A program made the position numbers and the translations under genes. A stretch of 64,000 nt of DNA from an uncultured bacterium (GTDB lineage: Bacteria > Babelota > Babeliae > Babelales > Babelaceae). The DNA lies in contig CAWJWZ010000001.1 in NCBI GenBank assembly GCA_963846705.1, forward strand, positions 73,922 to 137,921, given 5' to 3'. Positions 1,621-29,724 of the stretch are shown one piece after another; position 1 is the first letter of the stretch; each line of letters begins with the position of its first letter. Below the pieces are notes generated by a model. It searched no databases. It saw only the letters and a program-made list of their open reading frames with translations, and had not been told where the DNA came from.

Positions 1621-1781
1621 AAGTTAAAGCCTTGTGTATCCGTTAAAATACTTTCTATTATTATAACATACGATAGAAAATTCTTTTACTTAATTAAACA
1701 ACCAAAAAGTATTGAATTTATTAGCGTAAATAGATGAGCTTATAACATAAAACAACAATAAATTATAACCAAGTAACAATT

Positions 1782-2705
1782 ATGAAAATAATAAAATATA
1801 TTTTTATTTTTACTCTTACTCGTGGGTTAGTATTATGTATACCGCTAGCCGCGCAAGATAGCACATTACTATATAATTTAAATATTCTTAATTATCACTT
1901 ACAAAATTTGGCAGATAGTGTGCAGCCACTACCAATCATTGAATTACAATTTCCTGCACAAATAAAGACACTTGCTCGTAGAATGGTTTTAGGTGCACCC
2001 GATAAGGATACTCCTAATAGTATTACGTACTTAATAAACACACAAAATAATCGCCTTATCATGCAAGAGATAGCTGGTGTCTACCAGGCTGATAGGAGTG
2101 GTAGGAGTATCCTTAAAGACTTTGTAACACAATTAAGGCAACAGTACGATATAGACATACTTTTATTTCCTATACTTAATCAAGAACATGTAGTTGCTAA
2201 TTTTATTGTAAGCTTTAGTGATTTACCAAATAATCAAAAAGTATCTGTTCTACACAAATTACTTATAAATACACTTCAAGTTGCGTATATAAAAACAATA
2301 ATTAAGGATTCACTAAAGAAACTTGGCACTATTACTGAAGGCTACGAATCACCATATATCGTTACTAAAACCAATTTACTTACTGTTTCTGAAATTGTAT
2401 TTTTGCAACTTTATTTTCTTGGCATTTTAGTTACTGTACCTGACGTACAGATTAATACTCTTCAGAGCGCTTTTAATAAGTCAGCAATAGTTAACACACT
2501 AAATAAAACTATAGCTGATGCTAAAAAAAGAGCATCTTCTGTTTTAGTCTCAGAAACAGAAGAAAATTCTTTAAAGCAAGAGTACAAAGATCTAAAGGGT
2601 CGGCTTGAAACCGTTGCTACTCAATATGTAATTGATAATCTTCCTAAACGTCTAAAAGAGTTTGGCAATTGGTTACATACAGAATTAGAAAAAATCCAGC
2701 TTTAG
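1782..2705 (+). CDS. Paralogue 1 of a 5-member tandem family of signal-peptide proteins (no recognised family)
   Basis: 307 aa. Hydrophobic N-terminus (IFIFTLTRGLVLCIPLAAQDSTLLYNLNIL). Invariant core SEIVFLQLYFLGIL. C-terminal YVIDNLPKRLKEFGNWL. 5' leader duplicated upstream of paralogue 2. Confidence 0.75.
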   Translation: MKIIKYIFIFTLTRGLVLCIPLAAQDSTLLYNLNILNYHLQNLADSVQPLPIIELQFPAQIKTLARRMVLGAPDKDTPNSITYLINTQNNRLIMQEIAGVYQADRSGRSILKDFVTQLRQQYDIDILLFPILNQEHVVANFIVSFSDLPNNQKVSVLHKLLINTLQVAYIKTIIKDSLKKLGTITEGYESPYIVTKTNLLTVSEIVFLQLYFLGILVTVPDVQINTLQSAFNKSAIVNTLNKTIADAKKRASSVLVSETEENSLKQEYKDLKGRLETVATQYVIDNLPKRLKEFGNWLHTELEKIQL

Positions 2706-2845
2706 AAATACGATAGAAAGCAAAAAGCATCAACGACGATATAGAATCCTTTTACGCATTAAGTAACAAAAGGTATTGAATTTATTAGCATAAATATATT
2801 ACATTATAAAATAAAATAACAATAAATTATAACCAAGTAATAATC

Positions 2846-3781
2846 ATGAAAAAAATAGTGAAATATATTTTTATTCTTACCCATTTATTAGTATCAGGTC
2901 TACCACTAGCCGCACAAGATAACACATTAACATACAACTTAAGCATGCTCGATATTCACTTAACAGGGCTTGCAAATCTTCTACCAATAAGACTTGAAGA
3001 AATTGCGCGTAGAATGGTTTTTATTCTAGAAATACAACATCCCATTAATATTCAGCACATAATAACAAGAGATAAGAAACGCTTTATAGTTCAAAATATA
3101 ACCGTAACTACTGAACCTCAAAAAGATTTCATAACTTCATTACGAAAAATTGATGAGGTGAATGGATTATTGTCTCGTGTATTTGCTGCAAAAATACAAG
3201 TACCTTTTACTACTATAAATGTAAGCTTCAGTGAGCTAGAAGATAGTCAAACAATATCTGTTTTATATCAACTTATAACAGATATCCTTAAGCGACCAGC
3301 GTTCAAAGGAATTAGCAAGGATCAACTTGAGACAATGGCAGGCATTCCTAAAGAAGAACCAAGAACAGCAAAAGAAGAAAAAGAATTTACCTTTCTCAAT
3401 ACTAAAATCGAATTACTTACCGTTTCAGAAATTGTATTCCTTCAATTGTATTTTCTTGGCATTTTAGCTGCTACACGTGACGTACAGGTTAATACTCTTG
3501 AAAATGCTTTAAATGCCTCAAAAATAGTCAGTACTATAGTCAATACTAAAGAAATAGCTAGTGCATTAAAGAACACTATAACTACTTCTAAAGAAGCCTC
3601 TAATGACTTATCACAAACACAAAAGGATTCTTTAACGAAAGAATATCAATCTATAAAATCTCGTCTTACAAGCGTTGCTAATGACTATGTAATTAGTAAG
3701 CTTCCTAAAGACAACCAACCACTACAAGAATTTGGCCAGCGATTACTCAATAAATTAGAGCGAGAAGTAAAACAATGGTAA
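2846..3781 (+). CDS. Paralogue 2 of tandem family
   Basis: 311 aa. N-terminus PLAAQDNTLTYNLSML, core SEIVFLQLYFLGIL, C-terminus YVISKLPKDNQPLQEFGQRLL. Overlaps paralogue 3 by 7 nt. Confidence 0.75.
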   Translation: MKKIVKYIFILTHLLVSGLPLAAQDNTLTYNLSMLDIHLTGLANLLPIRLEEIARRMVFILEIQHPINIQHIITRDKKRFIVQNITVTTEPQKDFITSLRKIDEVNGLLSRVFAAKIQVPFTTINVSFSELEDSQTISVLYQLITDILKRPAFKGISKDQLETMAGIPKEEPRTAKEEKEFTFLNTKIELLTVSEIVFLQLYFLGILAATRDVQVNTLENALNASKIVSTIVNTKEIASALKNTITTSKEASNDLSQTQKDSLTKEYQSIKSRLTSVANDYVISKLPKDNQPLQEFGQRLLNKLEREVKQW

Positions 3782-4734
3782 ATAATACTAAGATAACTAC
3801 AAGTACTTTCTTACACATAGTACTAATATTTACTCTCTCGTTAAACGCACAAGACAGCATAATAGCATATCATTTAAATATGCTTACTACTACTTTGCAA
3901 AATCTTATGCGCCTTTTACCAGTTACTTCAAAAACAGTTAACTTAGTGATTGATCCAAATGACAAAGTACTTGCAGTTGACATAGTTTTAGATAAGCAAA
4001 ATCCTAGTATTATAACTTTATTAGATACAAACACTTTGATTATTCAGGATGTTAAAGCTGTTAGTAAACCTTCTCTTCCTGATTTTCAAGTATCATTACG
4101 AAGTCCAAATCAAGTAGATCAATTTTTTATACCTATATTTAGTCAAAGACATCAATTATATGGTTTTAGGCGTGTATATCAAGAACAGGCACCATACTTA
4201 CTTAAAGAATTAATAAGTTTCAATGAAGTACCAAATGATATAAAGATCGCTGCTTTAGAGTTAATAATAAATAAATATCTTTCCCCTGTTTCTAGGGTCA
4301 GTCAAAATCTTAGTCAAAAAATATGGGAAAAAATTCTACAGCCAGTAAAGATACAGACAACCCTTGACGAGCCATTATCCGGAGCAGAAGAATTAATATT
4401 TGAAAAAGCAAATCTTATAAAGAGTTTTGAGATAATATTTCTTCAATTATATTTTTTAGGTATTTTATCCACTTTCACTAATGACACAAAACGTCTTAAA
4501 AAAATTTTCGATGATTTGGATATAGCTTATTATTTGAAATTTACAGCAAATTGGATCAAAGGTCATCCACAAAAAGAACAACAAGTTTTAATGCAAGAAT
4601 ACCAAAACTTAACAAATCATCTTGTAACCGTTGCTACTAATTATATAATTAATAAACTTCCTAAAGATAACCTGCAGCTGCAACAGTTTGGCAATCAGTT
4701 ACTTAACCAACTAAAACAAGATATAAAAATATGA
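3775..4734 (+). CDS. Paralogue 3 of tandem family
   Basis: 319 aa. N-terminus SLNAQDSIIAYHLNML, core FEIIFLQLYFLGILS, C-terminus YIINKLPKDNLQLQQFGNQLL. Its stop overlaps the start of paralogue 4 (ATGA). Confidence 0.75.
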   Translation: MVNNTKITTSTFLHIVLIFTLSLNAQDSIIAYHLNMLTTTLQNLMRLLPVTSKTVNLVIDPNDKVLAVDIVLDKQNPSIITLLDTNTLIIQDVKAVSKPSLPDFQVSLRSPNQVDQFFIPIFSQRHQLYGFRRVYQEQAPYLLKELISFNEVPNDIKIAALELIINKYLSPVSRVSQNLSQKIWEKILQPVKIQTTLDEPLSGAEELIFEKANLIKSFEIIFLQLYFLGILSTFTNDTKRLKKIFDDLDIAYYLKFTANWIKGHPQKEQQVLMQEYQNLTNHLVTVATNYIINKLPKDNLQLQQFGNQLLNQLKQDIKI

Positions 4735-5669
4735 AAAATTATATCAAGATAAGTATAGGTATTTTCTTAAGTATGTTATTTATATCTACTCTCTTATTGC
4801 ACTCTCAAGACACCACACTAGTAAATAATTTAAATATACTTACAGTAAATTTACAAAGTCTTACACATCTTTTAAAACCATCACGTCCTTCTACTTTCAG
4901 ATCACGTAGTATCATACCACTGCCACCGGTCACTCTAAGAATTGGTCAAGATGACAGAGAACTTGCATTTAAGATAGTTTTTGATGATCAAAATCCTAGT
5001 ATCGCAAATTTATTAAATACTACTAATCAATTGATTATTCAAAATGTTAAAGCTGTTGGCGAACCTCTCCCTACTGATTTTCAAGCATCACTTCGAGAGC
5101 CAAACGAAGTAAATAATTTTTTTTTCTCTATACTTACTCATCAATATAAACTTGGACAACAAGTTGCAAGTTTTTATCAAGTACGTAATGATCAAAAAAT
5201 ATCTGTAATCGAGTCTATAATCTTCCAGATTGATCGCGGACAACAGCTTTCAGACAAAATAGATACAATAATGGAAGAATTAGGAAAGCTCTATGAACGT
5301 CGTCCTGAAAGTATATTTAGACCATTGTACAAGAAGGCCAGATTAATAGCACACTCAGAACAAATATTTCTCAAACTCTATTTTATGGGAATAGTATCAC
5401 GTATACCTACAGTAACACTTGCAGAATTTAAAGCTATTCTTGAAAAATCTACAATACTCACAGATTTAGAAAACATAACCGTTATTTATGGTTCTACAAA
5501 AGAGCGTTTTTCTCCTCAAGAGTATACACAATTACAGACGATGCTTAACGGAGTAGTTCAACACTATGTAATTAGTAAGTTTCCGAAAACTGAAGAATGG
5601 CAAAAATATGGCCCAAAATTACAGCAGCAACTTAGTGAAGCTCTAGATAAGTCTGTCTTGCCAAACTAG
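4731..5669 (+). CDS. Paralogue 4 of tandem family
   Basis: 312 aa. N-terminus LLHSQDTTLVNNLNIL, core SEQIFLKLYFMGIVS, C-terminus YVISKFPKTEEWQKYGPKLQQQLSEALDKS. Confidence 0.75.
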   Translation: MKNYIKISIGIFLSMLFISTLLLHSQDTTLVNNLNILTVNLQSLTHLLKPSRPSTFRSRSIIPLPPVTLRIGQDDRELAFKIVFDDQNPSIANLLNTTNQLIIQNVKAVGEPLPTDFQASLREPNEVNNFFFSILTHQYKLGQQVASFYQVRNDQKISVIESIIFQIDRGQQLSDKIDTIMEELGKLYERRPESIFRPLYKKARLIAHSEQIFLKLYFMGIVSRIPTVTLAEFKAILEKSTILTDLENITVIYGSTKERFSPQEYTQLQTMLNGVVQHYVISKFPKTEEWQKYGPKLQQQLSEALDKSVLPN

Positions 5670-5759
5670 AGACAAACATTCTATATTTTTAGTGTCTTTA
5701 ATTAACCTATAAATATATTGAATTGGTCTTAGAAAATATAATAAAATTATACAAAAGAG

Positions 5760-6755
5760 TTGATAGTTATTCAAAAAGGATACATAACAGTGAAAACTAA
5801 TACCAAGGTTACCATAGGTATTTTTTTAAGAATACTACTATCTTCTCTATTGCTTAATTCTCAAGACACTACACTAGTAAATAATTTAAGCATGCTTACG
5901 ATAAGTGTACAAAATCTTAGTAGCTTATTAAAGCCAGACCCAGGTATTACACTCAGTGATCAAGAAGCTAAAATTCTTGCAAATAAAATAGTTTTTTTTG
6001 GCTTCTATACACCAACAATTATTACTCATAGCATTATATCTTTAGTAAGAAATAATACGTTTATTATCCAAAATGTTACAGCTACTGGTGAGCCTTTTCC
6101 TACTGATTTTCAAGTATCACTACGAACACCAAATGAGATAAATGGATTTTTATTACCCTTACTTAGCCAACAATATCCAGTTAACTCTCATACTACCAGC
6201 TTTGATACATTAAACAATACTCAAAAAATTCAGATTCTCGTTAATCTTATAGTCCCACAAACTATTACTATTCATGAAAAAGGAAAAAGAAAAACAATAC
6301 CAAGCACGATTCCTGCAATGCTTAATGCTTCTGCTCTTACAGAACAATTAAGAGAAAAAATGAGGAATTTAGGACAGTTTCATCAGCGGTATCCGGAACC
6401 CGTACCTACACCATTGTCTGTTAAGGCTGTGATTATAGTAAATTCAGAGCTGATATTTATCAAACTTTACTTTATGGGCATATTATCAAGTATAGCTACA
6501 GTACAGCTTACACTATTTCAGGATATTCTTAAGCGTTCTGAAATATTTTCTGCTTTAAGCAATATAGCATCTCTTCCTGCTTTCGATTATACGCTTACTG
6601 ATCAAGAACATGCGCTATTAAGTGCAATGCTTAATCAAGTAGTTCAAAATTATGTAATCAGTAAGTTTCCTAAAACTGAAGAATGGCAAGAATATGGCCT
6701 CGAATTACAGAAGCAACTTCGTGAAGCTTTAGATAAGTCTCGCACAAGATCATAA
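5760..6755 (+). CDS. Paralogue 5 of tandem family (start uncertain)
   Basis: 331 aa as listed. The true start is probably the GTG near 5790, preceded by aaaagga. N-terminus LLNSQDTTLVNNLSML, core SELIFIKLYFMGILSS, C-terminus YVISKFPKTEEWQEYGLELQKQLREALDKS. Confidence 0.7.
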   Translation: MIVIQKGYITVKTNTKVTIGIFLRILLSSLLLNSQDTTLVNNLSMLTISVQNLSSLLKPDPGITLSDQEAKILANKIVFFGFYTPTIITHSIISLVRNNTFIIQNVTATGEPFPTDFQVSLRTPNEINGFLLPLLSQQYPVNSHTTSFDTLNNTQKIQILVNLIVPQTITIHEKGKRKTIPSTIPAMLNASALTEQLREKMRNLGQFHQRYPEPVPTPLSVKAVIIVNSELIFIKLYFMGILSSIATVQLTLFQDILKRSEIFSALSNIASLPAFDYTLTDQEHALLSAMLNQVVQNYVISKFPKTEEWQEYGLELQKQLREALDKSRTRS

Positions 6756-6838
6756 AATCTATACGTAAGATTTTTAATTTTCACTGTCTTATGGTATATT
6801 AATAAAAAGATTCACTATAAGCATTATATTTTCGCAAT

Positions 6839-7768
6839 ATGGGTAAAATTATACTTTTTTATAAATATGTTGATATAGCTGATACACATGCAATTCATGC
6901 TGAACAGCACGAGCTCTGTGCTACGCTTAATCTTAAAGGTCGCGTGCTTATAGCGCATGAGGGTATAAATGCAACGCTTGGCGGCGCTGCAAATGCAATA
7001 GATACATATATACGATTTATGAATCAACATAACCTATTTAATTCAATAGATTTTAAAGAAAGCGAGGGTAATGCTAATCACTTTCCTCGTTTGCAAGTAA
7101 CGATTAAGAAAGAAATAGTTGCATTTAAAGCAGGTTCTTTCAAAATAACAGTTGCTCATAAAGGCACAAAGCTTACTCCCGCTCAAGTACATGAACTTAT
7201 ACAACAGCAGCCCGATAACTTAGTTATATTAGATGTGCGCAATAACTATGAGTCACGTATTGGAAAATTTAAAAATGCACTTGCTGCTCCTATTGATAAT
7301 TTTCGCGAATTACCAGATTATATTGATGCTCATCTTGAGCAATTTAAAGACAAGCAGGTAATTACGTATTGTACTGGTGGAATTCGTTGCGAAAAAGCTT
7401 CAGCATATCTTAAATCAAAGAGTGTTGCACAAGAAGTATATCAACTGGAAGGTGGTATCTGCCGCTATGCTGAACAATATCCTGACGGGTACTTTCGAGG
7501 CAAAAACTATGTTTTTGATAATCGTATAAGTGTACCCGTTACGAGTGATATACTTGGCTCTTGTGCTGTATGTGCAACTGCATATGACGAATATACCAAC
7601 TGTATTAACGCAACATGTAATAAACAGATTATTTTGTGTTCTTCGTGTATGCATGCGCTTAATAATACGTGTAGTGTGCAGTGTAAGCAATTGGTACAAG
7701 AACGCAAAGTACGTATACGCGTAGCACCTAAAAAAATTAGCATATCACAGGAAGCACATGGAAACTAA
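6839..7768 (+). CDS. trhO: Rhodanese-related tRNA U34 hydroxylase (YceA/UPF0176 family) with Cys-rich C-terminal extension
   Basis: N-terminal ILFYKYVDI...HEGINATLGG signature of the YceA family. Rhodanese-like central region (ITYCTGGIRCEKA). C-terminal CxxC-rich tail. Confidence 0.75.
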   Translation: MGKIILFYKYVDIADTHAIHAEQHELCATLNLKGRVLIAHEGINATLGGAANAIDTYIRFMNQHNLFNSIDFKESEGNANHFPRLQVTIKKEIVAFKAGSFKITVAHKGTKLTPAQVHELIQQQPDNLVILDVRNNYESRIGKFKNALAAPIDNFRELPDYIDAHLEQFKDKQVITYCTGGIRCEKASAYLKSKSVAQEVYQLEGGICRYAEQYPDGYFRGKNYVFDNRISVPVTSDILGSCAVCATAYDEYTNCINATCNKQIILCSSCMHALNNTCSVQCKQLVQERKVRIRVAPKKISISQEAHGN

Positions 7769-8759
7769 AGGTAGTATATCGAGCCAAATACAAGATATTA
7801 GCTCTACTGCTGGTATATGTATACAAGAAAATGTGTCCTTACGTGATAAAAATTGGTTTAAAACAGGTGGTAATGCACGTTTTTATTGTGAGCCATCACA
7901 TGATTATGCATTTGCTCAAGCACTTCAGTTTGCTCGTACTCATGCATTAGATATAGTTGTACTTGGTGAAGGTGCTAATATACTTATAAGTGACGAAGGA
8001 TTTAATGGGCTCGTAATTCGTCCAGTTTCTCAAACTATTACGGTACATCACGAACAAACTAAGAGCGCTTACTGTTTTGTAGAAGCAGATGCGGGTGTGT
8101 CTTTTGGCCAACTTATTTCATTTTGTTTAGAGCATAATATAGGTGGCCTAGAAGAATTTAGTGGTATACCAGGTACAGTAGGCGGCTCAGTCTTTATTAA
8201 TATTCACTATTTTGAGCATCTTTTAAGTCATTTTTTAGTACGTGCTCATATAATTAACAAATACACCGGAGAGCTTACTGTTGTTGATAACTCTTGGTTT
8301 CAGTTTGGATACAATCAATCACGATTACACCAGAATGAGTATTATTTAGTACGTGCACTGTTTAAATTAAAAATGGTTTCACCGCTTGAAGCTGCGTATG
8401 CGCAAGGGCGACAAAGTGAGATTATTCGTCACCGTCAAAAGCGCTATCCTACACGCCATACCTGTGGCAGTTTTTTTAGAAACTTTTATGAGCATGAAGT
8501 AACCCTTACGAGTAATGGTAAAAAGCTTATTTTTGTGGCCTATTATCTTGATAAAGTAGGTGTTAAAGGTCACCTACGGGTAGGCAACGCTTTGGTTTCA
8601 TATCAGCATGCTAATATGATAGTTACCAACGAAAACGCTACATCGCATGAAGTTATTACCCTAGCACGTCACATGCAAGAGTTAGTATACCAAAATTTTG
8701 GTATACTCCCCCACCCTGAATGCCAGCTCGTGGGATTTAACCCGTATCCACTCCTGTGA
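7758..8759 (+). CDS. murB: UDP-N-acetylenolpyruvoylglucosamine reductase
   Basis: FAD-binding motifs FKTGGNARFY, VLGEGANILISDEGFNG and GIPGTVGGSVFINIHYFE; ~333 aa. Overlaps trhO by 11 nt. Not next to any other mur/fts gene. Confidence 0.8.
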   Translation: METKGSISSQIQDISSTAGICIQENVSLRDKNWFKTGGNARFYCEPSHDYAFAQALQFARTHALDIVVLGEGANILISDEGFNGLVIRPVSQTITVHHEQTKSAYCFVEADAGVSFGQLISFCLEHNIGGLEEFSGIPGTVGGSVFINIHYFEHLLSHFLVRAHIINKYTGELTVVDNSWFQFGYNQSRLHQNEYYLVRALFKLKMVSPLEAAYAQGRQSEIIRHRQKRYPTRHTCGSFFRNFYEHEVTLTSNGKKLIFVAYYLDKVGVKGHLRVGNALVSYQHANMIVTNENATSHEVITLARHMQELVYQNFGILPHPECQLVGFNPYPLL

Positions 8760-9421
8760 TTAACGAACTTATTTTTTGCGGCTCAGTTTTTTTAGTGAGC
8801 AGTACCGTACTTGGTGCTTTAAAATTAGGCAAAGAAGCATTAATAGCTCTTATTAGTTTATTAGTAGTATTGGCTAACTTATTTGTAATTAAAGAGATAA
8901 CGCTTATGGGGCTCTCTGCAACAGCATCTGATGCGCTGGCAGTTGGTGCAGCATTAGCGCTTAATATTGTACAAGAATATTATGGGCGCCAGATAGCACA
9001 AAGAGCAATAGGAATAAGTTTTAGCGCACTTTTTTTATATACGGTGCTGAGTCTTTTGCATATAGCATATAGACCAGGTTATGGCGATACCACCCAGGTT
9101 CACTTTTATGCACTACTTGCAGTAATGCCGCATATTGCTCTAGCATCACTAACTACCTATCTTATAGTACAGTCTATTGATTGTCAGCTGTATAGCATAC
9201 TACAAAAGAAGACAGTATGGTATGCTCAGGGCATGTTAAAAAATTATCTTTGTGTTGGCATAACGCAACTACTTGATACGGTTCTTTTTAGCTTTTTAGC
9301 ACTTTATGGTATAGTAGATAATATTGGGCAAATAATTATTACGAGCTACACTATAAAAATAGCAGTTATTTTTTTAGCAGCTCCTTTTTTACATTTTTCG
9401 CACGCTATTATAAAACAGTAA
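8756..9421 (+). CDS. Polytopic membrane protein, YhhQ/DUF165-like putative queuosine-precursor transporter
   Basis: 221 aa, matching YhhQ length. About 6 predicted TM helices. Start overlaps the murB stop. Sits immediately upstream of tgt, the usual genomic context for YhhQ. Confidence 0.5.
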   Translation: MINELIFCGSVFLVSSTVLGALKLGKEALIALISLLVVLANLFVIKEITLMGLSATASDALAVGAALALNIVQEYYGRQIAQRAIGISFSALFLYTVLSLLHIAYRPGYGDTTQVHFYALLAVMPHIALASLTTYLIVQSIDCQLYSILQKKTVWYAQGMLKNYLCVGITQLLDTVLFSFLALYGIVDNIGQIIITSYTIKIAVIFLAAPFLHFSHAIIKQ

Positions 9422-9429
9422 GTACTTTC

Positions 9430-10560
9430 ATGACCTCCTTTAGCTTTGAAATTATACATACATCTTCTAAATCACGTGCACGCGTTGGACGAATATATAC
9501 CCCTCATGGGATTATTGATACTCCTAACTTTGTAGCTGTTGGCACCAACGGTACACTAAAAGCTCTTGATAATCAAACTACGAGCGAACTTGGTGTGCAG
9601 CTTATGTTCTGTAACACGTATCACTTGCTCGTACAACCCGGTACTGAAATTATTAAAAAAGCAGGTGGTCTACATACGTTTATACAACGACAACAACCAA
9701 TTATTACCGATTCTGGTGGTTTTCAGGTTTTTAGTCTTGCCTATGGCGGTATTACGGAAGAATTAAAAAGCAAGGGTCAAAAAAAGCATACTAGTACGGT
9801 GGTAAAAATTACCGAAGAGGGAGTGCTGTTCAGGTCGTATCGTGATGGCTCTCTTATTGCACTTACTCCCGAATCATCAATTCAGGCGCAAAAAAATTTT
9901 GGTGCTGATATTATTATCCCGCTTGATGAACTTCCTCCCTATCATATTACTCATGAACAGCTTAAAAAATCGGTTGAGCGTACTCATAGGTGGGAAAAAC
10001 GGTCACTTGATGAACACCTTAAAAATACTAATAACCAAGCAATATATGGCGTTATTCATGGCGGTACCGATAAAGATTTACGCCTACAAAGTTGTACCTA
10101 TTTACGTAACTTACCGTTTGATGGGCTAGCTATCGGTGGCAGTTTAGGTAAAAATAGACATGAAATGCTTGATGTATTACGATTTCTTATGCCTCTTTTA
10201 CCAACAGATAAACCAAATCATCTTTTAGGCATAGGAGACTTACTCTCAGTTAATGAATTTCTTACACTTGGTATAGATACATTTGATAGTTCGCACCCAA
10301 CACGATGTGCTCGTCATGGTCTTTTATTTACTACGCAAGGTTGTGTTAAGATTATACAAGGTGCCAATAAAACATCACTTGAGCCTATTGACCCCGAATG
10401 CTCATGCACCGTATGTCGTCATTATACTCGTGCTTATATACATCATCTTTTTAAGGCACATGAAATTACTGCGTATATACTTGCCACCATACACAACGTT
10501 CATTTTATGATACACTACATGCGGCAATACCGTAATGCTATTTTAGAGGATAGGGTCTAG
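9430..10560 (+). CDS. tgt: Queuine/preQ1 tRNA-ribosyltransferase
   Basis: 376 aa. Catalytic region LMFCNTYHL...DSGGFQVFSL...LGIGD. Zn-binding site CSCTVCRHYTRAYIHHL. Confidence 0.9.
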   Translation: MTSFSFEIIHTSSKSRARVGRIYTPHGIIDTPNFVAVGTNGTLKALDNQTTSELGVQLMFCNTYHLLVQPGTEIIKKAGGLHTFIQRQQPIITDSGGFQVFSLAYGGITEELKSKGQKKHTSTVVKITEEGVLFRSYRDGSLIALTPESSIQAQKNFGADIIIPLDELPPYHITHEQLKKSVERTHRWEKRSLDEHLKNTNNQAIYGVIHGGTDKDLRLQSCTYLRNLPFDGLAIGGSLGKNRHEMLDVLRFLMPLLPTDKPNHLLGIGDLLSVNEFLTLGIDTFDSSHPTRCARHGLLFTTQGCVKIIQGANKTSLEPIDPECSCTVCRHYTRAYIHHLFKAHEITAYILATIHNVHFMIHYMRQYRNAILEDRV

Positions 10561-10565
10561 CGTAT

Positions 10566-11351
10566 ATGAATACTATTACATCCCCTTATAATCCTGAGAT
10601 CAAAACAGTAGTACAGCTTCATGATGCAACAGAGCGCAAAAAACAAAACAAATGTATTGTAGAAGGGTCACGTGCCATTAGTACTTTTATAACACATAAC
10701 CATAAACTTATTGTGTTATACTCTACTGAAAAAATGCTTACTCATGCTCGTAAACTCATACCGTACCGGCACCAACAAGAACAATGCATTAAGCTTGTCT
10801 CTGATCGTGTTATGCATAAAATAGCATCTACCGTAAGCCCAAGCGGATTACTTGCCGTCTTTGAAATACCAGCTGCTCTAAAAGCTGAATTTGTACCCGT
10901 TACTCTCGTTCTTGCTCAAATTAACGATCCCGGTAATATGGGTACGCTTATACGCACTGCAGCCGCGCTTACTATAAAAACAGTTATTATTATCGAAGGA
11001 GCTGACCCTTGGAGTCCTAAAGTTATTGCAGCAAGCGCTGGCACTATAGCAGCTGTTACGGTGTTACAATTAAACTGGCAAAAGCTTATGCTTTTAAGCA
11101 AGCAACATAAACTACAACTTTGTGCCCTTACACCGCGTGGTGGTAAGTTACCACAAGAGCTTATAGTAAATCGTACTGCTTTAGTTGTTGGTAATGAAGC
11201 GCATGGACTCCCTCCTGCATGGGAACAAGACTGTCATGAACGCTTTACTTTACCAATGCCCGGAGGAATTGAAAGCTTAAACGCTGCAGTTTCAGGATCC
11301 ATTGCACTCTATCTATCAATAATGCCGTCTCTATGTACTACTAACCATTAA
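10566..11351 (+). CDS. SPOUT-class RNA 2'-O-methyltransferase (TrmH/RlmB family)
   Basis: 261 aa. N-terminal substrate-binding region, then SpoU motifs LVLAQINDPGNMGTLIRTAAAL and LVVGNEAHGL...ESLNAAVSGSIALY. Confidence 0.75.
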   Translation: MNTITSPYNPEIKTVVQLHDATERKKQNKCIVEGSRAISTFITHNHKLIVLYSTEKMLTHARKLIPYRHQQEQCIKLVSDRVMHKIASTVSPSGLLAVFEIPAALKAEFVPVTLVLAQINDPGNMGTLIRTAAALTIKTVIIIEGADPWSPKVIAASAGTIAAVTVLQLNWQKLMLLSKQHKLQLCALTPRGGKLPQELIVNRTALVVGNEAHGLPPAWEQDCHERFTLPMPGGIESLNAAVSGSIALYLSIMPSLCTTNH

Positions 11352-11367
11352 TATAGTTGTTACTCTT

Positions 11368-12675
11368 ATGACTCATGCTCCTCAACTTTCACTGCTTGCA
11401 GCAATTTTAATTAATATTAATATCATGCTTGGTTCTGGTATTTTTATTAATACCGTGCTATTGGCACGCAATGGGGGTGACAAAGGCGCATTTGCGTATG
11501 TACTTGTAGGCATACTAGTGCTTCCGCTTATACTTGCTATAACACAGCTACTCAAGTATCACCGTGGCGGCACCTTTTACGAGTTTGCACATCCTATTCA
11601 TCCCTATGCAGGTTTTATAAGCACTTGGATTTACTTTACCACAAAAATAGCGTCTGCAACGCTGGCTATCCATGTATGTATTTCTCTTTTGCAGCAAATT
11701 TTTCCCTATTTAAACAATTATACTACTATAACGCTTGACTGCTGTGTTATTACACTATTTATGCTGTTAAATATGCTTAATTTAAAAATAGGCACGAGTA
11801 TTCAATATTCTTTTATTGCTCTTAAACTGATGCCTATTCTTTTTGTAATACTCAGCGGTATAGTACTCTATAATAGTTCTTTTATATCAGTTGATACCAT
11901 TGCGTGGTCCAATATTTTACCAACTATACCATTTGCTCTCTATGGGTTTACCGGCTTTGAAGCTACCTGTTCTTTAAGCAGACGATTAAAAAATCCAGAA
12001 AAAAATGGTCCCCGTGCTATTTTAATTTCTTTTTTTCTGGTCATTACTATTGCTACACTGTTCCAACTTGCTTTTTTTAGTAATCTAGGACCATTACTGA
12101 GTAAACTTGAAAGCTATCGTCAAGCTTTTCCTCTTTTGCTCAATAAATTATATACTGCACAGTCTACTAGCAAAAACATTCTTTTAGCATTGCTTAATAT
12201 CGGTATCGCGTCTTCATCGCTTGGTGCTGCATATGGTATCATGTTTAGTAATAGCTGGAACCTTTTTGTATTAGCAAGCAATAACTATATACTCGCTGCT
12301 CCTAAGTTTACGTATCTTAATAGATATCACATGCCCATTATTTGCATTATAGCTGAAGCAGCATTAGCGTATACCTATATACTTATTACTCGTGGTAATC
12401 AAATACCACTGCAGCAACTTGTATCGCTTGGATCAACTATTGCGTATACACTAAGTATGATAGGACTTATTGTATTTATATATCGCACACAAAAACGTAT
12501 TACTTGGCTTGGTATACTTGGTACTATGAGCTCTTGCATATTGCTTGGAGCAGCACTTTATAATTTTTATATGTTTGGCACTGCCTCTCTTCTAGGCTTT
12601 ATAGTATTAGTACTTTTTGGCACAAGCATATTTTATTATAAATACTATAATCGCTCTACATTACGAGCTCTATAA
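11368..12675 (+). CDS. APC-superfamily amino-acid permease
   Basis: 435 aa. About 12 predicted TM helices. N-terminal LLAAILININIMLGSGIF motif typical of amino-acid permeases. Confidence 0.65.
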   Translation: MTHAPQLSLLAAILININIMLGSGIFINTVLLARNGGDKGAFAYVLVGILVLPLILAITQLLKYHRGGTFYEFAHPIHPYAGFISTWIYFTTKIASATLAIHVCISLLQQIFPYLNNYTTITLDCCVITLFMLLNMLNLKIGTSIQYSFIALKLMPILFVILSGIVLYNSSFISVDTIAWSNILPTIPFALYGFTGFEATCSLSRRLKNPEKNGPRAILISFFLVITIATLFQLAFFSNLGPLLSKLESYRQAFPLLLNKLYTAQSTSKNILLALLNIGIASSSLGAAYGIMFSNSWNLFVLASNNYILAAPKFTYLNRYHMPIICIIAEAALAYTYILITRGNQIPLQQLVSLGSTIAYTLSMIGLIVFIYRTQKRITWLGILGTMSSCILLGAALYNFYMFGTASLLGFIVLVLFGTSIFYYKYYNRSTLRAL

Positions 12676-12796
12676 ACACATAACTACGTAAAAACACTTT
12701 TCTTATAGGGCATTTTACAAAAATACATACCATATCATACTAATATAATATAAAAAACAGATTATTTTATAGTATTAACTAAATACATTAGTACAA

Positions 12797-14896
12797 ATGG
12801 TAAGGATTATCTTTATGTTTTTACGTATTTTTCTTGGTCTAAGCAGTACGCTCGCTATGAGCGGCATGCTTATGGCAATGCAAATAACTACTTATCCTAC
12901 TCACTCTGTTTATTTAGCTCGTCAAGCTCAATGTGCAGCATTAAGCCATGCGTTACCTCGTACGCAACTAGCAATTAACTTATCTAAAATCTTTAAACAA
13001 GATATATCAGATAAACTTATAGCTTTAGCTAATCAACGTAAAGCTACTACTGACGTAGATGTTGCAAAACGCATCTTACTACTTGCTCATAATACTCCAT
13101 TCTCATTAACTAAAACTAATAGAGATGCTGAATTACTGTCTAGCCAAACATCTATATTTCAACAAGTATCAGCAAATAGCAACTTAGAAATACCTACACT
13201 AGAAACTCCGGAGCAAACTGAATTATTTCTAGAATGTCTTGAGAATCAAGCAGATCTCACGCACAATGACAGTAAAGTAATAGCAGAACGTTTACACGAA
13301 TACACATTACCTGATCTTTGTGCTATAGCTAAAACATATAACTCTCTTGATATGCATACTATTCAAACTAATAGTGCTCTATTAGAACCTCTTATACAAG
13401 CTCTTGCTCATAAGCTTATTAATACCAATATACAAGAACAGATGCAGTATCAAGAGCTTACTACTACACTATCGCCTACTATACAAAGTATGCTCGTACG
13501 TGAAACACTTAAGCAAAGTGGCTTATATACTATGTTACATAGTAATAATAATAGTAATCGTACTATGATATCCTGTGCTGTGCATGAACGACCAAATCAA
13601 AGCACATCAGCATTATCCTGGACACCTGCCGGATATCATCTTGCATATAATAAAAAAGATATTAGTGTGCAAGCAAATGATACCCTTTATATATGGGATA
13701 GCATAACACAGCAACATATATATAGAGCAAACAAACAACAAGATATCATAAAGTCACTAGAATGGTCATCTAATGGTACATATCTTGCTGTTAAATGGGA
13801 TCACAGTGGAGAGATAGGGATTTGGGATACTATACACAAAGAATATCGTACTTTTTTGAAAAAAGAAGATTATACCGGTTTTATTTTATTAGATATCCAC
13901 TGGTTACCAAATAGTAACTATATTATAGGTAATTTTGATGATGGCTTTGTAAGAGTATGGGATATAGAAAATAGCAGGTGTATACGTGAGATTCAAGTAG
14001 CTGAAAATAAACAAACAAGTCTAAGCTCAGTAATAAGCTGCTCCCCTAATGGTAAATACATAGCGCATATATATGACAAAGGTACTAATAGTCGTTCTCA
14101 TAAGACCATAAAAATATTGTACAGCAATACATTGGCTACTAAAACTGAGTTTCAACTTGAATTAAAATGGAAGGATAATTTTAACAAACTCGCTTGGTCA
14201 CCTGATGCTACTCGTATTGCATATAGATCTGGATCTACTGTAAAAATTTTAGATATTACTACTCAGCAATGCATTACTTTACCTGGATTACCTGAAAAAG
14301 ACATTGAGATGGTTTGGTCAATCTCATGGTCACCCGATGGCAAATGTATAGCAATTGGCCATGATTATACTATTAACATATGGAATACAGACACCAATAC
14401 ATATACTGGTACTATATTTCAACGTAAGGTATCAGATAATACTCTTGTTACTACATATCGACCAAATGATCAGCTAGAATATATGCATGATTTGCTTAAT
14501 AGAACTACTGAAAAAACAACTTGTCCAGTGTATTACATAAGCTGGTCACCTGATGGTAAATATATAGGAGCAAGTTATGGAAATGAAGTTGCAGGAAGAC
14601 CACAAGGTATTCAAGGAACATATGTATGGCAATGGCTAGATCCTGCTTTTGATACACTTTTAGAAGAAAAGCTAACGCTCAATTCTATTTTACCAGTTAT
14701 ACATAAACTAAATATACATGAGCTTAGTAACACACAGGCTCTTGGAATTCTGCATACTCAGCTTGGTCAATGTACAAATACAGTAAATACTCCAAAGCTC
14801 AATACTACACAAGCGAGTACTCAACTTAGTAAATCTTTTATATATACCGCCTTAGGTAAGATAGGCACTATTTTACGTAGATTCTATACTAAGTAA
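12797..14896 (+). CDS. Signal-peptide WD40-repeat (beta-propeller) protein, eukaryote-like
   Basis: 699 aa. N-terminal hydrophobic leader. Multiple WD-type repeats (LAVKWDHSGEIGIWDT, DGFVRVWDIENS, SISWSPDGKCIAIGHDYTINIWNTD, YISWSPDGKYIGASYG). Confidence 0.75.
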   Translation: MVRIIFMFLRIFLGLSSTLAMSGMLMAMQITTYPTHSVYLARQAQCAALSHALPRTQLAINLSKIFKQDISDKLIALANQRKATTDVDVAKRILLLAHNTPFSLTKTNRDAELLSSQTSIFQQVSANSNLEIPTLETPEQTELFLECLENQADLTHNDSKVIAERLHEYTLPDLCAIAKTYNSLDMHTIQTNSALLEPLIQALAHKLINTNIQEQMQYQELTTTLSPTIQSMLVRETLKQSGLYTMLHSNNNSNRTMISCAVHERPNQSTSALSWTPAGYHLAYNKKDISVQANDTLYIWDSITQQHIYRANKQQDIIKSLEWSSNGTYLAVKWDHSGEIGIWDTIHKEYRTFLKKEDYTGFILLDIHWLPNSNYIIGNFDDGFVRVWDIENSRCIREIQVAENKQTSLSSVISCSPNGKYIAHIYDKGTNSRSHKTIKILYSNTLATKTEFQLELKWKDNFNKLAWSPDATRIAYRSGSTVKILDITTQQCITLPGLPEKDIEMVWSISWSPDGKCIAIGHDYTINIWNTDTNTYTGTIFQRKVSDNTLVTTYRPNDQLEYMHDLLNRTTEKTTCPVYYISWSPDGKYIGASYGNEVAGRPQGIQGTYVWQWLDPAFDTLLEEKLTLNSILPVIHKLNIHELSNTQALGILHTQLGQCTNTVNTPKLNTTQASTQLSKSFIYTALGKIGTILRRFYTK

Positions 14897-22194: not shown

Positions 22195-23951
22195 ATATTT
22201 TTAGCTATATTAAGTCTCATATATCTATTCTTGATGTTATAAGCGAATATGCAACCCTTAGAAAAACAGGTCATTACTATAAGGGACATTGTCCCTTTCA
22301 CCATGAACGTACTGGTTCATTTACCGTAAGCCCCGCAAAAGAAATTTTCTATTGCTTTGGTTGTCATCAGGGTGGGGATGTCATATCATTTATTGCCAAA
22401 ACTGAGCGGCTCACCCCTTTAGAGGCAGCATATTACCTCAGTAATCGCTATGCGATTACATTACCTGAATCACTACAAGAAGAAAAAGTAAAAAATCCCA
22501 AAAGTGATTACTATGCTTTGTGTGCACTTATTACACAGTGGTGCCATAATATGCTATTACAGCATGAAGCTCCTCGTGCTTATCTTGCCAAACGCGGTAT
22601 AATGCATCAAAGTAGTATATTATTTACTATTGGTTATTTTCCTGTAGGGTATCATGCACTTAAAGAGCTTATACACTTGGCAAAAAAGCATTATATTCTT
22701 ACTGAAGCATTACTAGAATCTAAGATTATAATGGAGGGCAAGCATCAAATATACTCTCCCTTTGAAGATCGTATTATCTTTCCTATTACTGATCACGTAG
22801 GAAGAACTGTAGGATTTGGAGGACGGATATTTAAAGAGGGGGATACCCGTGTTAAATATTATAACTCTCACGAAAATAGCTTTTTTACTAAAGGCGCCCT
22901 GCTTTTTGGTCTACATCATGCTAAAAAAAGTATTATAGAAGAACAGAATGTCTTTCTTGTTGAAGGGTATACTGATTGTATAGCAATGGTACAAGCTGGT
23001 TATACTAATACTGTAGCAACATTAGGTACTGCCTGTACTGTTCAGCATTTGCAACAATTAGCACGCTATGCTTCTAAATTATATGTACTCTATGATAGCG
23101 ACAATGCCGGCTACAATGCATTATTACGTCTAACCCAAATGTGTTGGCAATTTGATCTTGAGGTGTATACGTTACGCCTCCCTCCAGAAGAAGATCCAGC
23201 TTCATTTTTTGCACGTGGAGGTAATCTTACTACATATCTTAATAATGCCGTTGATATTTTTATGTTTTTTGCAGAAAGTTTAGGGCAACAAATGCATAAG
23301 GCGACTGTTGGTGAACGAGTAAATAAAGTTCGTACTTTTTTGCAAATTATAGCACGTATACAAGATCCGCTAAAACGTGATGTTTTATTACAAAAAGCTG
23401 CCACGACTTTTGCTCTTTCATTGTCTACACTCACGCAAGAGCTACAGCGTATACAGCAAAAACATGCATATACGTTACATAATGATCAGTCTAAAATATC
23501 AGTAAGTAAACCAGAAAGCACGTTTCAACTACATGCATTAGAAAAAAAATTATTTTCTGCTATACTAAGTAATGTACATGTGTTGAGTAGCGGTCATGAA
23601 GAGTTTTTAATACAACACTTATCTTTCCCTTTAAATCAGCTGTTGCAGAAGTTACTTAGTTTCAAAACTAAAGTAAGTTTACCTGATACTCTTCACAAAG
23701 AATTTTTTAATGAGCTTGAAGAACAGGAAAAAGAATTGCTGAGCCAAATACTTATAGAAACAGCAGAGATACAGAAAGATAATACATTTGAGCTCTTATT
23801 TGAGCAATTTAAAAAAAAACAATGGAAGCTTATAGTGCACACTATACAAGCTAGACTTGTAGCAGCACAAAAAACACCAAACGCTCAAGAGAGCATTGCT
23901 CAAATACTATTAGATTTTGAAAACGTAAAAGAAAAAATAAAGGGACATTAA
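22191..23951 (+). CDS. dnaG: DNA primase
   Basis: 586 aa. CHC2 zinc finger [13 protein letters not shown]...[20 protein letters not shown] region [12 protein letters not shown]...LYDSDNAG. Confidence 0.9.
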
Positions 23952-23953
23952 TA

Positions 23954-25858
23954 ATGATCAAAAAGACGCCACGTAAAAAATTAGGGACATCGGAACGACG
24001 CAAACCAACAGCATCAGGAGTAGATCTTCATCAAGAACTCATTGAAGGCTTAGTAGAAAAAGGCAGAAAAAATGGCGTAATGACATACGAAGAAATAATG
24101 GAGTTTAGTGATAGAAACCATTTAACTGAAATCGAAGCTAATGATCTACTTAAAGCTCTTGAGCGTGAAAATGTAGAACTTGTAATGCTTGAAGAACTTG
24201 AAGCTGAACGTGGGGAATTGGTAGAATTTGAGAAAGAAGATGCTGGAACACAACATATTAAGACCCATCTTGAATCCTCACTAGAACTTGTTGGTGATGA
24301 AGAAGAAGACTTAGAAGCTGAAGCCGAAGATGAAGATCGTGATTTTGCGCGTGAAGTAGGAGAAAGCACTCCTATAGCAGACGGCGTAAAATCGTATTTG
24401 CGAGATATTGGAAAGATACCGCTTTTAAATAAAAAAACAGAAACTGCTATTGCTGAGCAAATTGCAACGGGAAAGACCGAATCAATTAGTGCTATCTCCA
24501 AGTTTCCGTTTATTCATAAAGAGCTTGTTACTATCGGCGACAGATTGCAAAAAAATACTATTGCGCTTAAAGACGTTATTCAGTTTTCTGAATTTGATGA
24601 AGAAAACTTACCAAAATATGAGGAAGAAAAAAATGCGTTTTTAGCCACGATTAATCAGATCAAAGAACTTATCGAAAACGAAACAAAAATCTATTATAGT
24701 TATCGTGGAACGTTAGATAGCGAAAGCAAAAAGAAAGAAATGCTTGCGAAAATCAAGCAAAATAAAGAGAACATTAGCAAAACAATACAGACTATTAAGC
24801 TATCTAATAAACTTATTAAAAAACTTACTAAGCGTATTGAAAAAGCTATCGGTAAGATCAATGAAAAAATTGAACTTATTAAAGTAGCTGAAATGCAACT
24901 TAAAGCACACAAGCACCCCGTTGCGGAGCATGACCAGCATGAACTTGAAGAAATTGAACGTTCAATACGTAGTGCTTATAAAGGCATTAAGAAAATAGAA
25001 CATGAACTAGGTCTTCCTCAAGACGCTATTTTTAGTAATTATAAGCAACTAATGGAAGGACAATTCAAAGATAAGCGTGCAAAGGACGATCTAGCACGTG
25101 CTAACCTACGTTTAGTAGTAAATATTGCAAAAAAATATGTAAATCGAGGCCTGCACTTTTTAGATCTTATTCAAGAAGGAAATATAGGTCTTATGAAGGC
25201 CGTAGAAAAATTCGAATTTGAACGAGGATACAAATTTTCAACATATGCAACGTGGTGGATTCGTCAAGCAATAACACGTGCTATAGCTGATCAGTCACGA
25301 ACTATTCGTGTACCTGTACACATGGTTGAAACACTCAATAAAATTAACAAAATTAAGCGTACATTTATACAGGAGCATGGGCGAGAACCAAGTCATACTG
25401 AACTAGCTAAAGAGTTGAATCTTGATGAAAAGAAAATTAAGAATATTATAAAAATCTCTAAAGAACCTATTTCACTCCAAACACCCGTAGGTGATAGTGA
25501 AGATGCATTTATTAGTGATTTTATAGAAAGTGAAAACGAATTTTCGCCAGCAGATACCGTAGCCAATAGCGATCTTAAAGAGCGCGTGCGAGAAGTGCTA
25601 AAAACACTTACTCCGCGAGAAGAAAAAGTACTTAAGATGCGCTTTGGCATTGATGTAGCCTCAGAACATACGCTTGAAGAAGTAGGTAAAGACTTTTCAG
25701 TGACCCGTGAGCGTATTCGTCAAATTGAAGTAAAAGCGTTACGAAAACTACGGCATCCATCGCGAAGCAAGAAGTTGCAAACGTTCTTTGATAAAGAGTT
25801 TGCCATGATCGATCTTCCTGATGAAGAAGATAATGACAGCTCAGATAGTGATGAATAA
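23954..25858 (+). CDS. rpoD: Primary RNA polymerase sigma factor (sigma-70)
   Basis: 634 aa. Acidic region 1.1 and non-conserved insert. Region 2 [44 protein letters not shown]. Region 4 [30 protein letters not shown]. Confidence 0.95.
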
Positions 25859-25899
25859 ATAAGTATAATATATAGCGAAAGTAAGCGAAATTTAATTAT

Positions 25900-27210
25900 A
25901 TGGATATCCCCCCGGATAGTAGTCTGCTCTATACTAATAGTATTCTTTTTTTAGTAGCATTAGTTGCATGTGCATTATTCTCTTTTTTAGAAACAAGTAT
26001 TACCTCATTGCGATTATTTAGACTTAAAGAGATTGCACAAACGCACAAAAAATATAAGGCTCTTTTAAGTACATTAGAACAAAACCCGGATCGTGTACTT
26101 ATCACCATTTTAGTAGCTAATAATTTGGCTGATGTCACAGCAGCGGTAATTAGTAGCCAAATTATGGAAACCATATCACATATGCTCCAGCTTTCTGGCA
26201 GCGTAGGATTCTCTCTAGGTATTGGACTTACTACTGCTGCTATATTAATTTTTGGTGAAATTATCCCTAAAAATATTGCTAAAGTACATGGACAAAAGCT
26301 CTTTGGTTCTACTTTATGGATTACAAATATAGTATTTTATGCACTCTATCCATTTGTAATATTTTTAGTACGCTTTGCAAATTTTTTCACGCAAAAGGCA
26401 GGTGATGGCAAACCAGTCGAAAGCATGGAATATATTACTTCAGAACGAGAAATTCAGTTTTTAATCGAGTACATCACTGAAAAAGGTCTTATAGAGCAAG
26501 AAAAAACCCAAATGCTTAAAAGTATTTTTAAGCTGAGCGCTACACCGGTAAAAGAAATCATGATACCTGAAACTGAAGTTATTGCTTTAAGTGCACAAAC
26601 AGGATTAAAAGAAACGCTGCAGTTATTTTCTAAATATCAGTTTTCACGCTTACCAGTCTACGAAGGTGAATTTGACAATATTATCGGTATGCTTCACCAA
26701 AAAGACGTATTTCTTATGCTCTTGCGTAACGAAGAAAAATCACTTAAAGAGTTGGTACGTCCTATTATGTTTATCCCAGAAACAATGAAGCTTAACCAAT
26801 TACTGCGTGAATTTCGTGAACAGCGTATGCACATTGCCATGGTTATTAACGAATACGGTAGTGTTACCGGACTTGTTACCCTTGAAGACGTACTTGAAGA
26901 AATAGTTGGCGATATTAGCGATGAATACGAACCGGTCACTTCTAAGATAGTTCCTTTACGTCCAGGTGCATGGCTCGTAGATGCAAGTATTAATCTCGAT
27001 AAGCTTGCATCATTGCTTCGCATTACCTTTGAAACTGAAGAAGCAATTACTCTTGGTGGATTCTTAACAGAGCAATTACAACATTTACCTAAAAAAGGTG
27101 AACTGCTTAGCTATAAGAATTATAACTTTCAGGTACAAAAAGCCAGCCCGAAACGAGTGTTTCAAGTTTTAATTTTTCAGCATGAGCTCCCTCAATTAAC
27201 AGAAAGCTAA
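25900..27210 (+). CDS. CorC/HlyC (TlyC) family transporter: DUF21 + CBS pair + CorC_HlyC
   Basis: 436 aa. Four N-terminal TM helices, tandem CBS domains and a C-terminal transporter-associated domain. Confidence 0.8.
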   Translation: MDIPPDSSLLYTNSILFLVALVACALFSFLETSITSLRLFRLKEIAQTHKKYKALLSTLEQNPDRVLITILVANNLADVTAAVISSQIMETISHMLQLSGSVGFSLGIGLTTAAILIFGEIIPKNIAKVHGQKLFGSTLWITNIVFYALYPFVIFLVRFANFFTQKAGDGKPVESMEYITSEREIQFLIEYITEKGLIEQEKTQMLKSIFKLSATPVKEIMIPETEVIALSAQTGLKETLQLFSKYQFSRLPVYEGEFDNIIGMLHQKDVFLMLLRNEEKSLKELVRPIMFIPETMKLNQLLREFREQRMHIAMVINEYGSVTGLVTLEDVLEEIVGDISDEYEPVTSKIVPLRPGAWLVDASINLDKLASLLRITFETEEAITLGGFLTEQLQHLPKKGELLSYKNYNFQVQKASPKRVFQVLIFQHELPQLTES

Positions 27211-27213
27211 TAC

Positions 27214-29199: not shown

Positions 29200-29202
29200 A
29201 TT

Positions 29203-29628: not shown

Positions 29629-29724
29629 ACATTAGTCCCTCTTGTTTATTTTTCATATAAAAATTCTATTAGAATTAAATATAAGAATAAATAGAGTACA
29701 AAGTCAATAATTAACCGGACCTAT

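Follow-up and report, generated by a model that had tools for sequence, protein, structure and literature searches.

A tandem array of five diverged paralogues, probably Sec-exported and lacking detected relatives, in an uncultured bacterium

The window analysed here is a stretch of 64,000 nucleotides (nt) from contig CAWJWZ010000001.1 (assembly GCA_963846705.1, positions 73,922 to 137,921) of an uncultured bacterium. Near its start lie five consecutive genes on one strand, m1 to m5 (members 1 to 5), whose products resemble one another throughout their length. The genes and the elements associated with them, in coordinates of the window, are as follows.

1699-1781, forward strand: upstream element of m1, a putative promoter/5' untranslated region (5'UTR), of which a copy was duplicated along with the gene
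1782-2705, forward strand: m1, 307 amino acids (aa), predicted mature protein 283 aa
2391-2429, forward strand: core block EIVFLQLYFLGIL of m1, aa 204-216 (the block lies at aa 195-207 in m2, 219-231 in m3, 210-222 in m4 and 220-232 in m5)
2763-2845, forward strand: upstream element of m2, the second copy, with a promoter match inside
2846-3781, forward strand: m2, 311 aa; nearest paralogue m1 (46% aa identity, synonymous divergence [dS] 0.65)
3775-4734, forward strand: m3, 319 aa
4731-5669, forward strand: m4, 312 aa; the best fit to the family profile among the members
5790-6755, forward strand: m5, 321 aa from GTG 5790, in an open reading frame (ORF) that is open from TTG 5760

The five genes are true, diverged paralogues. 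A MAFFT alignment of their products spans the full length with 39 invariant columns, and m1 and m5, the pair that lies furthest apart, match in BLASTP at E=1e-24, which far exceeds chance similarity; an earlier, sequence-only reading of the locus, which described five consecutive same-strand paralogues, is borne out by both results. Identity between pairs is 30-49% at the amino acid level (49% for m4 and m5) and 49-65% at the nucleotide level. The lengths given in that reading, 307-331 aa, hold for m1 to m4; the figure of 331 for m5 depends on the TTG at 5760, and the likely start is the GTG at 5790, which has AAAGGA 8 nt upstream and gives 321 aa, also the length of database protein P0004. 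Read from the matrix of pairwise identities, the order of duplication appears to track the order of the genes, as ((m1,m2),(m3,(m4,m5))). No sixth copy was found in the rest of the window when its six-frame ORFs were scanned with hmmsearch --max.

Three motif regions had been proposed for the family, and all three align in all five proteins, although not always in the form first given. Directly behind the hydrophobic N-terminus stands QD-x-T/I-L...L..L...L, for which the earlier pattern is approximate: m2 reads QDNTL and LTGL, m3 reads QDSII and YHL, and m5 has VQNL. The core block, E-[IQL]-[IV]-F-[LI]-[QK]-L-Y-F-[LM]-G-I-[LV], is present in every member as claimed; its first residue, described as Glu or Gln, is always Glu, and its second is Ile, Gln or Leu. 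Near the C-terminus, Y-[VI]-I-..-[LF]-PK-...-[FY]-G-..-L is conserved throughout, and the longer version KLPKDN..LQ(E/Q)FG, attributed to members 1 to 3, belongs to m2 and m3 only, since m1 reads NLPKRLKEFG.

All five N-termini consist of a lysine-containing n-region and a hydrophobic h-region (Kyte-Doolittle 19-mer means of 1.5-2.2), and the residues directly before the invariant Gln-Asp (LAA, LAA, LNA, LHS and LNS in m1 to m5) make up a small-x-small site. By inspection and hydropathy, each has what defines a Sec (type I) signal peptide, namely a basic n-region, an h-region of 10-15 hydrophobic residues and small residues at -3 and -1, in keeping with the earlier description of the N-termini as signal-like; in m1 the signal peptide is MKIIKYIFIFTLTRGLVLCIPLAA, followed by QD. 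No lipobox, defined as [LVI][ASTVI][GAS]C ending the signal peptide, was found in m1 to m5. Cysteine is absent from four of the five full proteins, and the sole cysteine of m1 lies in LVLC, with Leu at -1, six residues before QD. The signal pattern is that of substrates of Sec and signal peptidase I, probably with cleavage before Gln-Asp. The predicted mature proteins, of 283-297 aa and 32-34 kDa with a pI of about 8, contain no cysteine; other exported proteins of the window are Cys-rich.

The elements upstream of m1 and m2 are 84% identical over 83 nt without a gap, as against 65% nucleotide identity between the two coding regions, and from this excess we conclude that the duplicated unit contained a regulatory region that is now under constraint. 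The exact 17-mer GTATTGAATTTATTAGC occurs only in these two elements, which probably represent a shared promoter or 5'UTR of m1 and m2, and a consensus promoter match, TTAGCA-16-TAAAAT, falls at 2785-2812 within the m2 copy; promoter and terminator scans of this DNA barely exceed shuffled expectation, and the match lends weak support only. The region upstream of m5 is only loosely similar to the m1/m2 element. Gaps of 140 nt and 120 nt precede m2 and m5, whereas the stop and start codons of m2 and m3 overlap by 7 nt (ATGGTAA) and those of m3 and m4 by 4 nt (ATGA), an arrangement that would couple the translation of m2, m3 and m4. Because of the duplicated upstream element, the gaps and the overlaps, we think that there are probably three expression units, m1, m2-m3-m4 and m5; the co-transcription suggested earlier fits m2-m3-m4 and is unlikely to extend to all five genes. 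An 11-bp perfect hairpin at 2535-2563 (TCTTCTGTTTT...AAACAGAAGA), flagged by the terminator scan, lies inside the m1 coding sequence in a variable linker region and is probably due to chance.

AlphaFold2 models, built on the five paralogue sequences alone, gave for full-length m4 a mean predicted local distance difference test (pLDDT) of 59.6 and a predicted template modelling score (pTM) of 0.64, with a C-terminal bundle at pLDDT 85-95, and for mature m1 a usable model at pLDDT 75.1 and pTM 0.74. The m1 model begins with a helix at residues 2-22, on which the conserved leucines recur at heptad spacing, and a second at 34-46; it continues through a beta-hairpin (70-79/85-94), a helix (97-109) and another beta-hairpin (111-114/117-120), and ends in seven helices that run to the C-terminus. 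The core block is contained in a 26-residue helix, 167-192, modelled at pLDDT 86-90. The predicted scaffold thus has three parts, namely the N-terminal helix, a small alpha/beta subdomain with the two beta-hairpins, and a bundle of helices packed around the invariant apolar one, and the insertions and deletions that distinguish the paralogues are located between the conserved structural elements. The central helix is apolar on all sides in m1 to m5, with an Eisenberg mean hydrophobicity of 0.44-0.70 and a hydrophobic moment of 0.06-0.18. Its Hessa-scale sums in m1 to m5 are +1.75, +2.2, +3.9, +6.0 and +3.7 kcal/mol, to be compared with -1.7 to +3.3 for transmembrane (TM) helices of transporters encoded in the same window and +3.6 to +8 for those segments of soluble enzymes that are the most hydrophobic. 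The modelling proposed in the sequence-only reading yielded no specific known fold: a Foldseek search of the model against the PDB returned no match at an E of 1e-3 or better, and the N-terminal alpha/beta subdomain has no structural match. The structural matches that do appear have 5-13% sequence identity and are scattered across unrelated bundle families, so that they indicate just a helical bundle.

Relatives were sought at several depths. A word-indexed search of the family profile against 5.8 billion clustered proteins, and a full HMMER search (a filter-only scan) of 1.84 billion representative proteins, recovered only the five proteins of the window. Degenerate-pattern and tblastn scans found no relatives in GTDB species genomes, JGI metagenome contigs or IMG/VR, and hmmsearch --max, run on six-frame ORFs from the window and from 23 Babeliales loci, gave no foreign sequence an E better than 0.45. 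Among described families, the best Pfam scores were below the cut-off of 25 bits (FhaA_N at 16.7 bits and BNR_assoc_N at 14.9 bits); the best NCBIfam match (E 0.02) involved a single member only, those from PHROGs (E 0.044) and from PDB sequences (E 3.4) were not significant, and PADLOC gave no match for m1 to m5. The earlier reading had not recognised the family, and neither these databases nor the 1.84 billion representatives change that; the profile searches confine the family to the five proteins of the window. As a control we took a Pfam-less exported protein of the same window (27214-29199, 661 aa, with a signal peptide), which does have metagenome relatives at 29-45% identity, so at least one neighbour of a comparable kind is less narrowly distributed than the five-gene family. 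One relative of the control protein is labelled by its source as belonging to an 'Alteromonas naphthalenivorans' metagenome-assembled genome (MAG), probably a binning error. In the literature on paralogue arrays of the Dependentiae, we found only NTT translocase paralogues described. The protein family is undescribed, and the modelled fold is possibly undescribed as well.

The rates at which the members diverge help to explain this isolation. Synonymous and nonsynonymous divergence (dS and dN) and their ratio, omega, were computed by the method of Nei and Gojobori (NG86) with bootstrap 95% intervals for three pairs: m1-m2 (dS 0.65, dN 0.44, omega 0.67 [0.49-0.91]), m4-m5 (dS 0.71, dN 0.41, omega 0.57 [0.42-0.77]) and m3-m4 (dS 0.76, dN 0.55, omega 0.73 [0.53-0.98]). 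In each tested pair omega is significantly below 1 (0-1.7% of bootstrap replicates reach 1 or more), so that purifying selection acts on the genes, but weakly; omega of 0.57-0.73 on a conserved scaffold also agrees with the heavy divergence outside the motifs that had been noted, and supplies the comparison between members that had been suggested. The deepest paralogue pairs reach a dS near 1.3, and NG86 at about 20% GC in third codon positions (GC3) tends to underestimate dS, while gene conversion could also lower its apparent value. By the same method, synonymous sites prove to be saturated in the orthologues of tgt, murB and the UPF0176 gene from the nearest genomes sampled, with a proportion of synonymous differences (pS) of 0.72-0.76 and dS above 2.3. 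Since the paralogues stand at 0.65-1.3, the whole expansion appears to have taken place after the lineage parted from every relative sampled. At the distance of the nearest genome, an omega near 0.6 implies an expected dN above 1.4, that is, an unrecognisable sequence. Fast evolution together with sparse sampling of the lineage is therefore enough to explain the lack of homologues, and neither de novo birth nor exotic transfer is needed to account for the orphan status of the family.

The genome that carries the array is that of a member of the Babeliales (Dependentiae/TM6): its Tgt (9430-10560) has at most 71% identity to proteins of Candidatus Babeliales and Dependentiae MAGs. The array occupies the junction between pheT and a UPF0176/rhodanese-murB-Vut_1-tgt block. 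Upstream lies pheT (B3_4/B5 domains) in divergent orientation, and downstream follow genes for UPF0176/rhodanese, MurB, a Vut_1 transporter, Tgt, a SpoU methylase, an MraY-type GT4 protein, MnmG, Lgt, DnaG and sigma-70. In two related Babeliales genomes, L007 and L012, the order pheT (reverse strand) / UPF0176-murB-Vut_1-tgt is retained, and the junction holds a single ORF with a signal peptide, of 144-146 aa (6914-7348 in L007, 6846-7286 in L012). The two junction ORFs are similar to each other and not to the five-gene family, and we rejected them as relatives of it (hhalign probability 0.2%); with only an unrelated ORF at this site in L007 and L012, the array was evidently gained or expanded locally. 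Exported accessory genes may have come to occupy this junction repeatedly. The GC content of the array (0.30-0.31) is below that of its flanks (0.35-0.38). Its GC3 is 0.19-0.21, as compared with 0.21-0.27 in neighbouring genes and 0.22-0.27 in the housekeeping genes among them, and the WD40 and ankyrin genes of the window have the same value as the array, so that composition makes an unconvincing case for foreign origin, which we rejected. Interspersed with the housekeeping genes of the window are genes for eukaryote-like repeat proteins.

12797-14896: WD40 protein, 699 aa
18660-20687: ankyrin protein, 675 aa
34052-35536, reverse strand: DUF5122 beta-propeller with a signal peptide, 494 aa
37613-38863: leucine-rich repeat (LRR) protein, 416 aa
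40908-46460, reverse strand: Sel1/TPR protein, 1849 aa
49092-50039: ankyrin protein, 315 aa

Such a mixture of housekeeping and repeat proteins is typical of this phylum of intracellular protist parasites. The window also encodes four small ORFs with signal peptides, at 32682-33059 (reverse), 40033-40473 (forward), 29203-29628 (reverse) and 29725-30363 (reverse); two of these are Cys-rich (125 and 146 aa), one has 141 aa and one is lipoprotein-like (LLASC), and none had a Pfam match where tested. The 64 kb hold no tRNA gene and no Rfam family at the gathering threshold. A further observation concerns the contig L024 (ENA ERZ25039586 contig_47059), of which positions 6575-13818, a 7.2-kb piece, are 99.2% identical to 23789-31038 of the window. 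The piece is set in DNA of about 70% GC with AraC, desaturase and CoA-transferase genes, the genes for sigma-70 and CNNM are split or truncated, and the array region is not reached. The contig looks like a metagenome chimera, and from the 99.2% identity it follows that the same organism was present in that sample.

We suggest, with a probability of roughly 0.55, that m1 to m5 constitute a lineage-specific, tandemly duplicated family of Sec-exported scaffold proteins that act at the cell envelope or at the interface with the host. Stepwise tandem duplication in a Babeliales chromosome, at the pheT/UPF0176 junction, would have produced the lineage-restricted family. Each copy would be directed outward by its Sec-type signal peptide and cleaved by signal peptidase I just before Gln-Asp, freeing outside the cytoplasm a soluble, Cys-free, mildly basic mature protein of 32-34 kDa, in which a conserved framework would bear loops and linkers free to diverge rapidly in length and sequence. 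The proteins might then function in the periplasm, on the surface or after release, at the envelope of an obligate intracellular bacterium or on the side that faces the host. There they would serve for binding or as scaffolds, with specificities diversified by duplication and fast evolution. Export and cleavage we infer from the N-termini, and the final location and a role in interaction with the host are speculative.

Several considerations weigh against this proposal. Export and cleavage were read from the sequence by inspection, and that the proteins leave the periplasm, are exposed to the host or have a host target is pure inference; a periplasmic or membrane role is also possible. No 40-codon window has an omega convincingly above 1, the elevated values are as compatible with relaxed constraint as with diversifying selection, and NG86 at about 20% GC3 may have overestimated them. 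The structural models depend on just five sequences, and in m1 and m2 the central helix is hydrophobic enough that it could be a marginal membrane helix, its Hessa sums being inside the range of TM helices encoded in the window.

That last point opens the way to a different topology, in which m1 to m5 would be bitopic inner-membrane proteins: the core block would span the membrane, either after cleavage of the signal or with the signal as an anchor, so that about 175 aa would lie on the periplasmic and about 90 aa on the cytoplasmic side, in the manner of a sensor or anchor protein. A single-span protein should have a hydrophobic segment of about 19-21 residues that can insert, is conserved in all members and is flanked by charges in a positive-inside pattern. 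The Kyte-Doolittle 19-residue means of the block (1.4-2.1), the Eisenberg values of 0.59-0.70 with very low moments of 0.06-0.12 in m1 to m3, and the agreement of the m1 and m2 Hessa sums with TM helices of Vut_1 and of an amino-acid permease from the same window all suit a membrane segment. The segment, however, contains a Glu that never varies, together with either Gln or Lys, which speaks against it, as does m4, whose longest uncharged run is 8 residues and whose sum of +6.0 is in the range of soluble proteins. There is no positive-inside bias either, as Lys and Arg number 13 on the N-terminal side and 10 on the C-terminal side, and in m4 the counts (6 versus 2) run opposite to what an N-out topology would require. 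AlphaFold, moreover, places the helix within a compact bundle (pLDDT 86-90, pTM 0.74). For these reasons we prefer to see a buried helix of the predicted bundle in what the sequence-only reading called a hydrophobic core motif; a membrane helix is also possible, and bitopic proteins we consider unlikely. Another thought is that the bundle forms a cavity around the invariant helix, so that the proteins, periplasmic or secreted, would carry or sequester hydrophobic ligands such as host lipids, with different paralogues for different ligands, in a bacterium that scavenges lipids. A strictly conserved helix that is apolar all round, in Cys-free and probably exported proteins, would fit, as would the report on Chromulinavorax, for which no sign of lipid biosynthesis was seen and the use of host lipids was suggested (PMC6561590). 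Mp1p-like lipid-binding proteins, which are five-helix bundles with a central fatty-acid cavity, are a possible but uncertain model for such carriers. Housekeeping carriers, however, are normally conserved across relatives, which this family is not, and we find the idea unlikely.

One may also imagine an inside-out bundle, soluble as long as the helix is buried and inserting on contact with the host or vacuolar membrane, a functional analogue of pore-forming bundles of the colicin or Bcl-2 type or of chlamydial Inc proteins. Its attractions are an apolar, low-moment helix ringed by amphipathic helices in an exported protein, and an organism that lives as a parasite inside protists and encodes many host-directed repeat proteins nearby. 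There is, however, a single hydrophobic helix, neither paired in a hairpin nor part of a bilobed segment, m4 carries a charged Lys and its apolar run is short, and no route through the outer membrane was identified, so that we hold the scheme to be quite improbable. A more elaborate version, in which such exported bundles form a previously unseen fold class, with the apolar helix buried during Sec export and later inserted in host membranes or clamped on lipids by paralogues tuned to different targets, is a long shot of about the same order as the lipid carriers. Finally, the high omega for bacterial genes and the GC below that of the flanks (0.30-0.31 versus 0.35-0.38) might suggest that the duplicates are decaying and without function, or that the ORFs are spurious and owed to AT-rich DNA. 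None of the five frames, of about 310 codons each, is interrupted, though, omega is significantly below 1 in each tested pair, 39 columns have stayed invariant at a dS of 0.65-1.3, conservation extends to the upstream element and a fold is predicted with confidence; decay was already disfavoured, and we regard it as most improbable.

Obligate intracellular bacteria carry other tandem, fast-evolving exported families, such as the chlamydial Pmp and Inc clusters and the OMP-1/Msp2 arrays of Anaplasma and Ehrlichia. The five genes share with these a local tandem duplication, signal sequences, a conserved framework with variable segments and restriction to a lineage; they differ in having no beta-barrel, autotransporter or bilobed hydrophobic domain, the predicted fold being mostly helical, and in being old copies (dS of at least 0.65), not recombining cassettes. 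Inc proteins have a bilobed hydrophobic domain of about 40-60 aa, formed by two adjacent TM helices, and no cleavable Sec signal. We rejected membership in that group because m1 to m5 have one hydrophobic block of about 17-20 residues, with Glu and Gln or Lys in it, and a Sec-type signal. Outer-membrane beta-barrels and autotransporters, defined by a C-terminal domain of amphipathic beta-strands with a terminal aromatic residue, were also rejected, since the C-terminal 160 residues are predicted to be all helical; the five proteins end in ...IQL, ...KQW, ...IKI, ...LPN and ...TRS. Pore-forming bundles, for which colicin, Bcl-2 and the T domain of diphtheria toxin served as the standard, combine similarity of fold with a buried hydrophobic helical hairpin, and m1 to m5 do not belong among them. 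An immunity array against polymorphic toxins should consist of small immunity proteins next to a toxin or delivery gene; here the neighbours are housekeeping genes, the members have about 310 aa, and PADLOC gives no match, and we rejected this candidate too. Among the classes compared, the generic definition of a protein with a Sec signal peptide is the only one that m1 to m5 satisfy.

The nearest parallel within the phylum is Chromulinavorax destructans, an isolate of the Dependentiae in which 44% of coding sequences have signal peptides, a subset enriched in ORFans (PMC6561590). Like those ORFans, m1 to m5 belong to the same phylum-level lineage, carry an N-terminal Sec signal, have no recognisable domain or homologue, and have as neighbours repeat proteins of the ankyrin, WD40, LRR and Sel1 types, with a presumed action on the host. 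Unlike them, they form a defined tandem family of five members with a conserved scaffold, and no sequence relationship to proteins of Chromulinavorax or other Dependentiae was found among the HMMER representatives and the 23 Babeliales loci. The array is a fast-evolving, probably exported ORFan family of the sort to be expected in host-dependent bacteria, and its existence is unsurprising.

The Dependentiae/Babeliales are widespread and almost uncultured parasites of protists, and their dealings with their hosts are known mainly as counts of ankyrin-type repeats and of 'secreted ORFans'. The array offers a tractable example of such ORFans, with five intact copies, a predicted fold that matches no other, a conserved apolar helix and measurable rates, and those rates (duplications at a dS of 0.65-1.3, omega near 0.6, the nearest genome at a dS above 2.3) give a quantitative account of why a family of this kind looks like an orphan. 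If the proteins do bind host membranes or lipids, they would be a new element in the tool-kit of the phylum; otherwise, they are one more lineage-specific exported family. Should the inside-out bundle prove correct, a parasite of the Dependentiae, which is without a type III system, could by this means modify, or feed on, the membrane that surrounds it.

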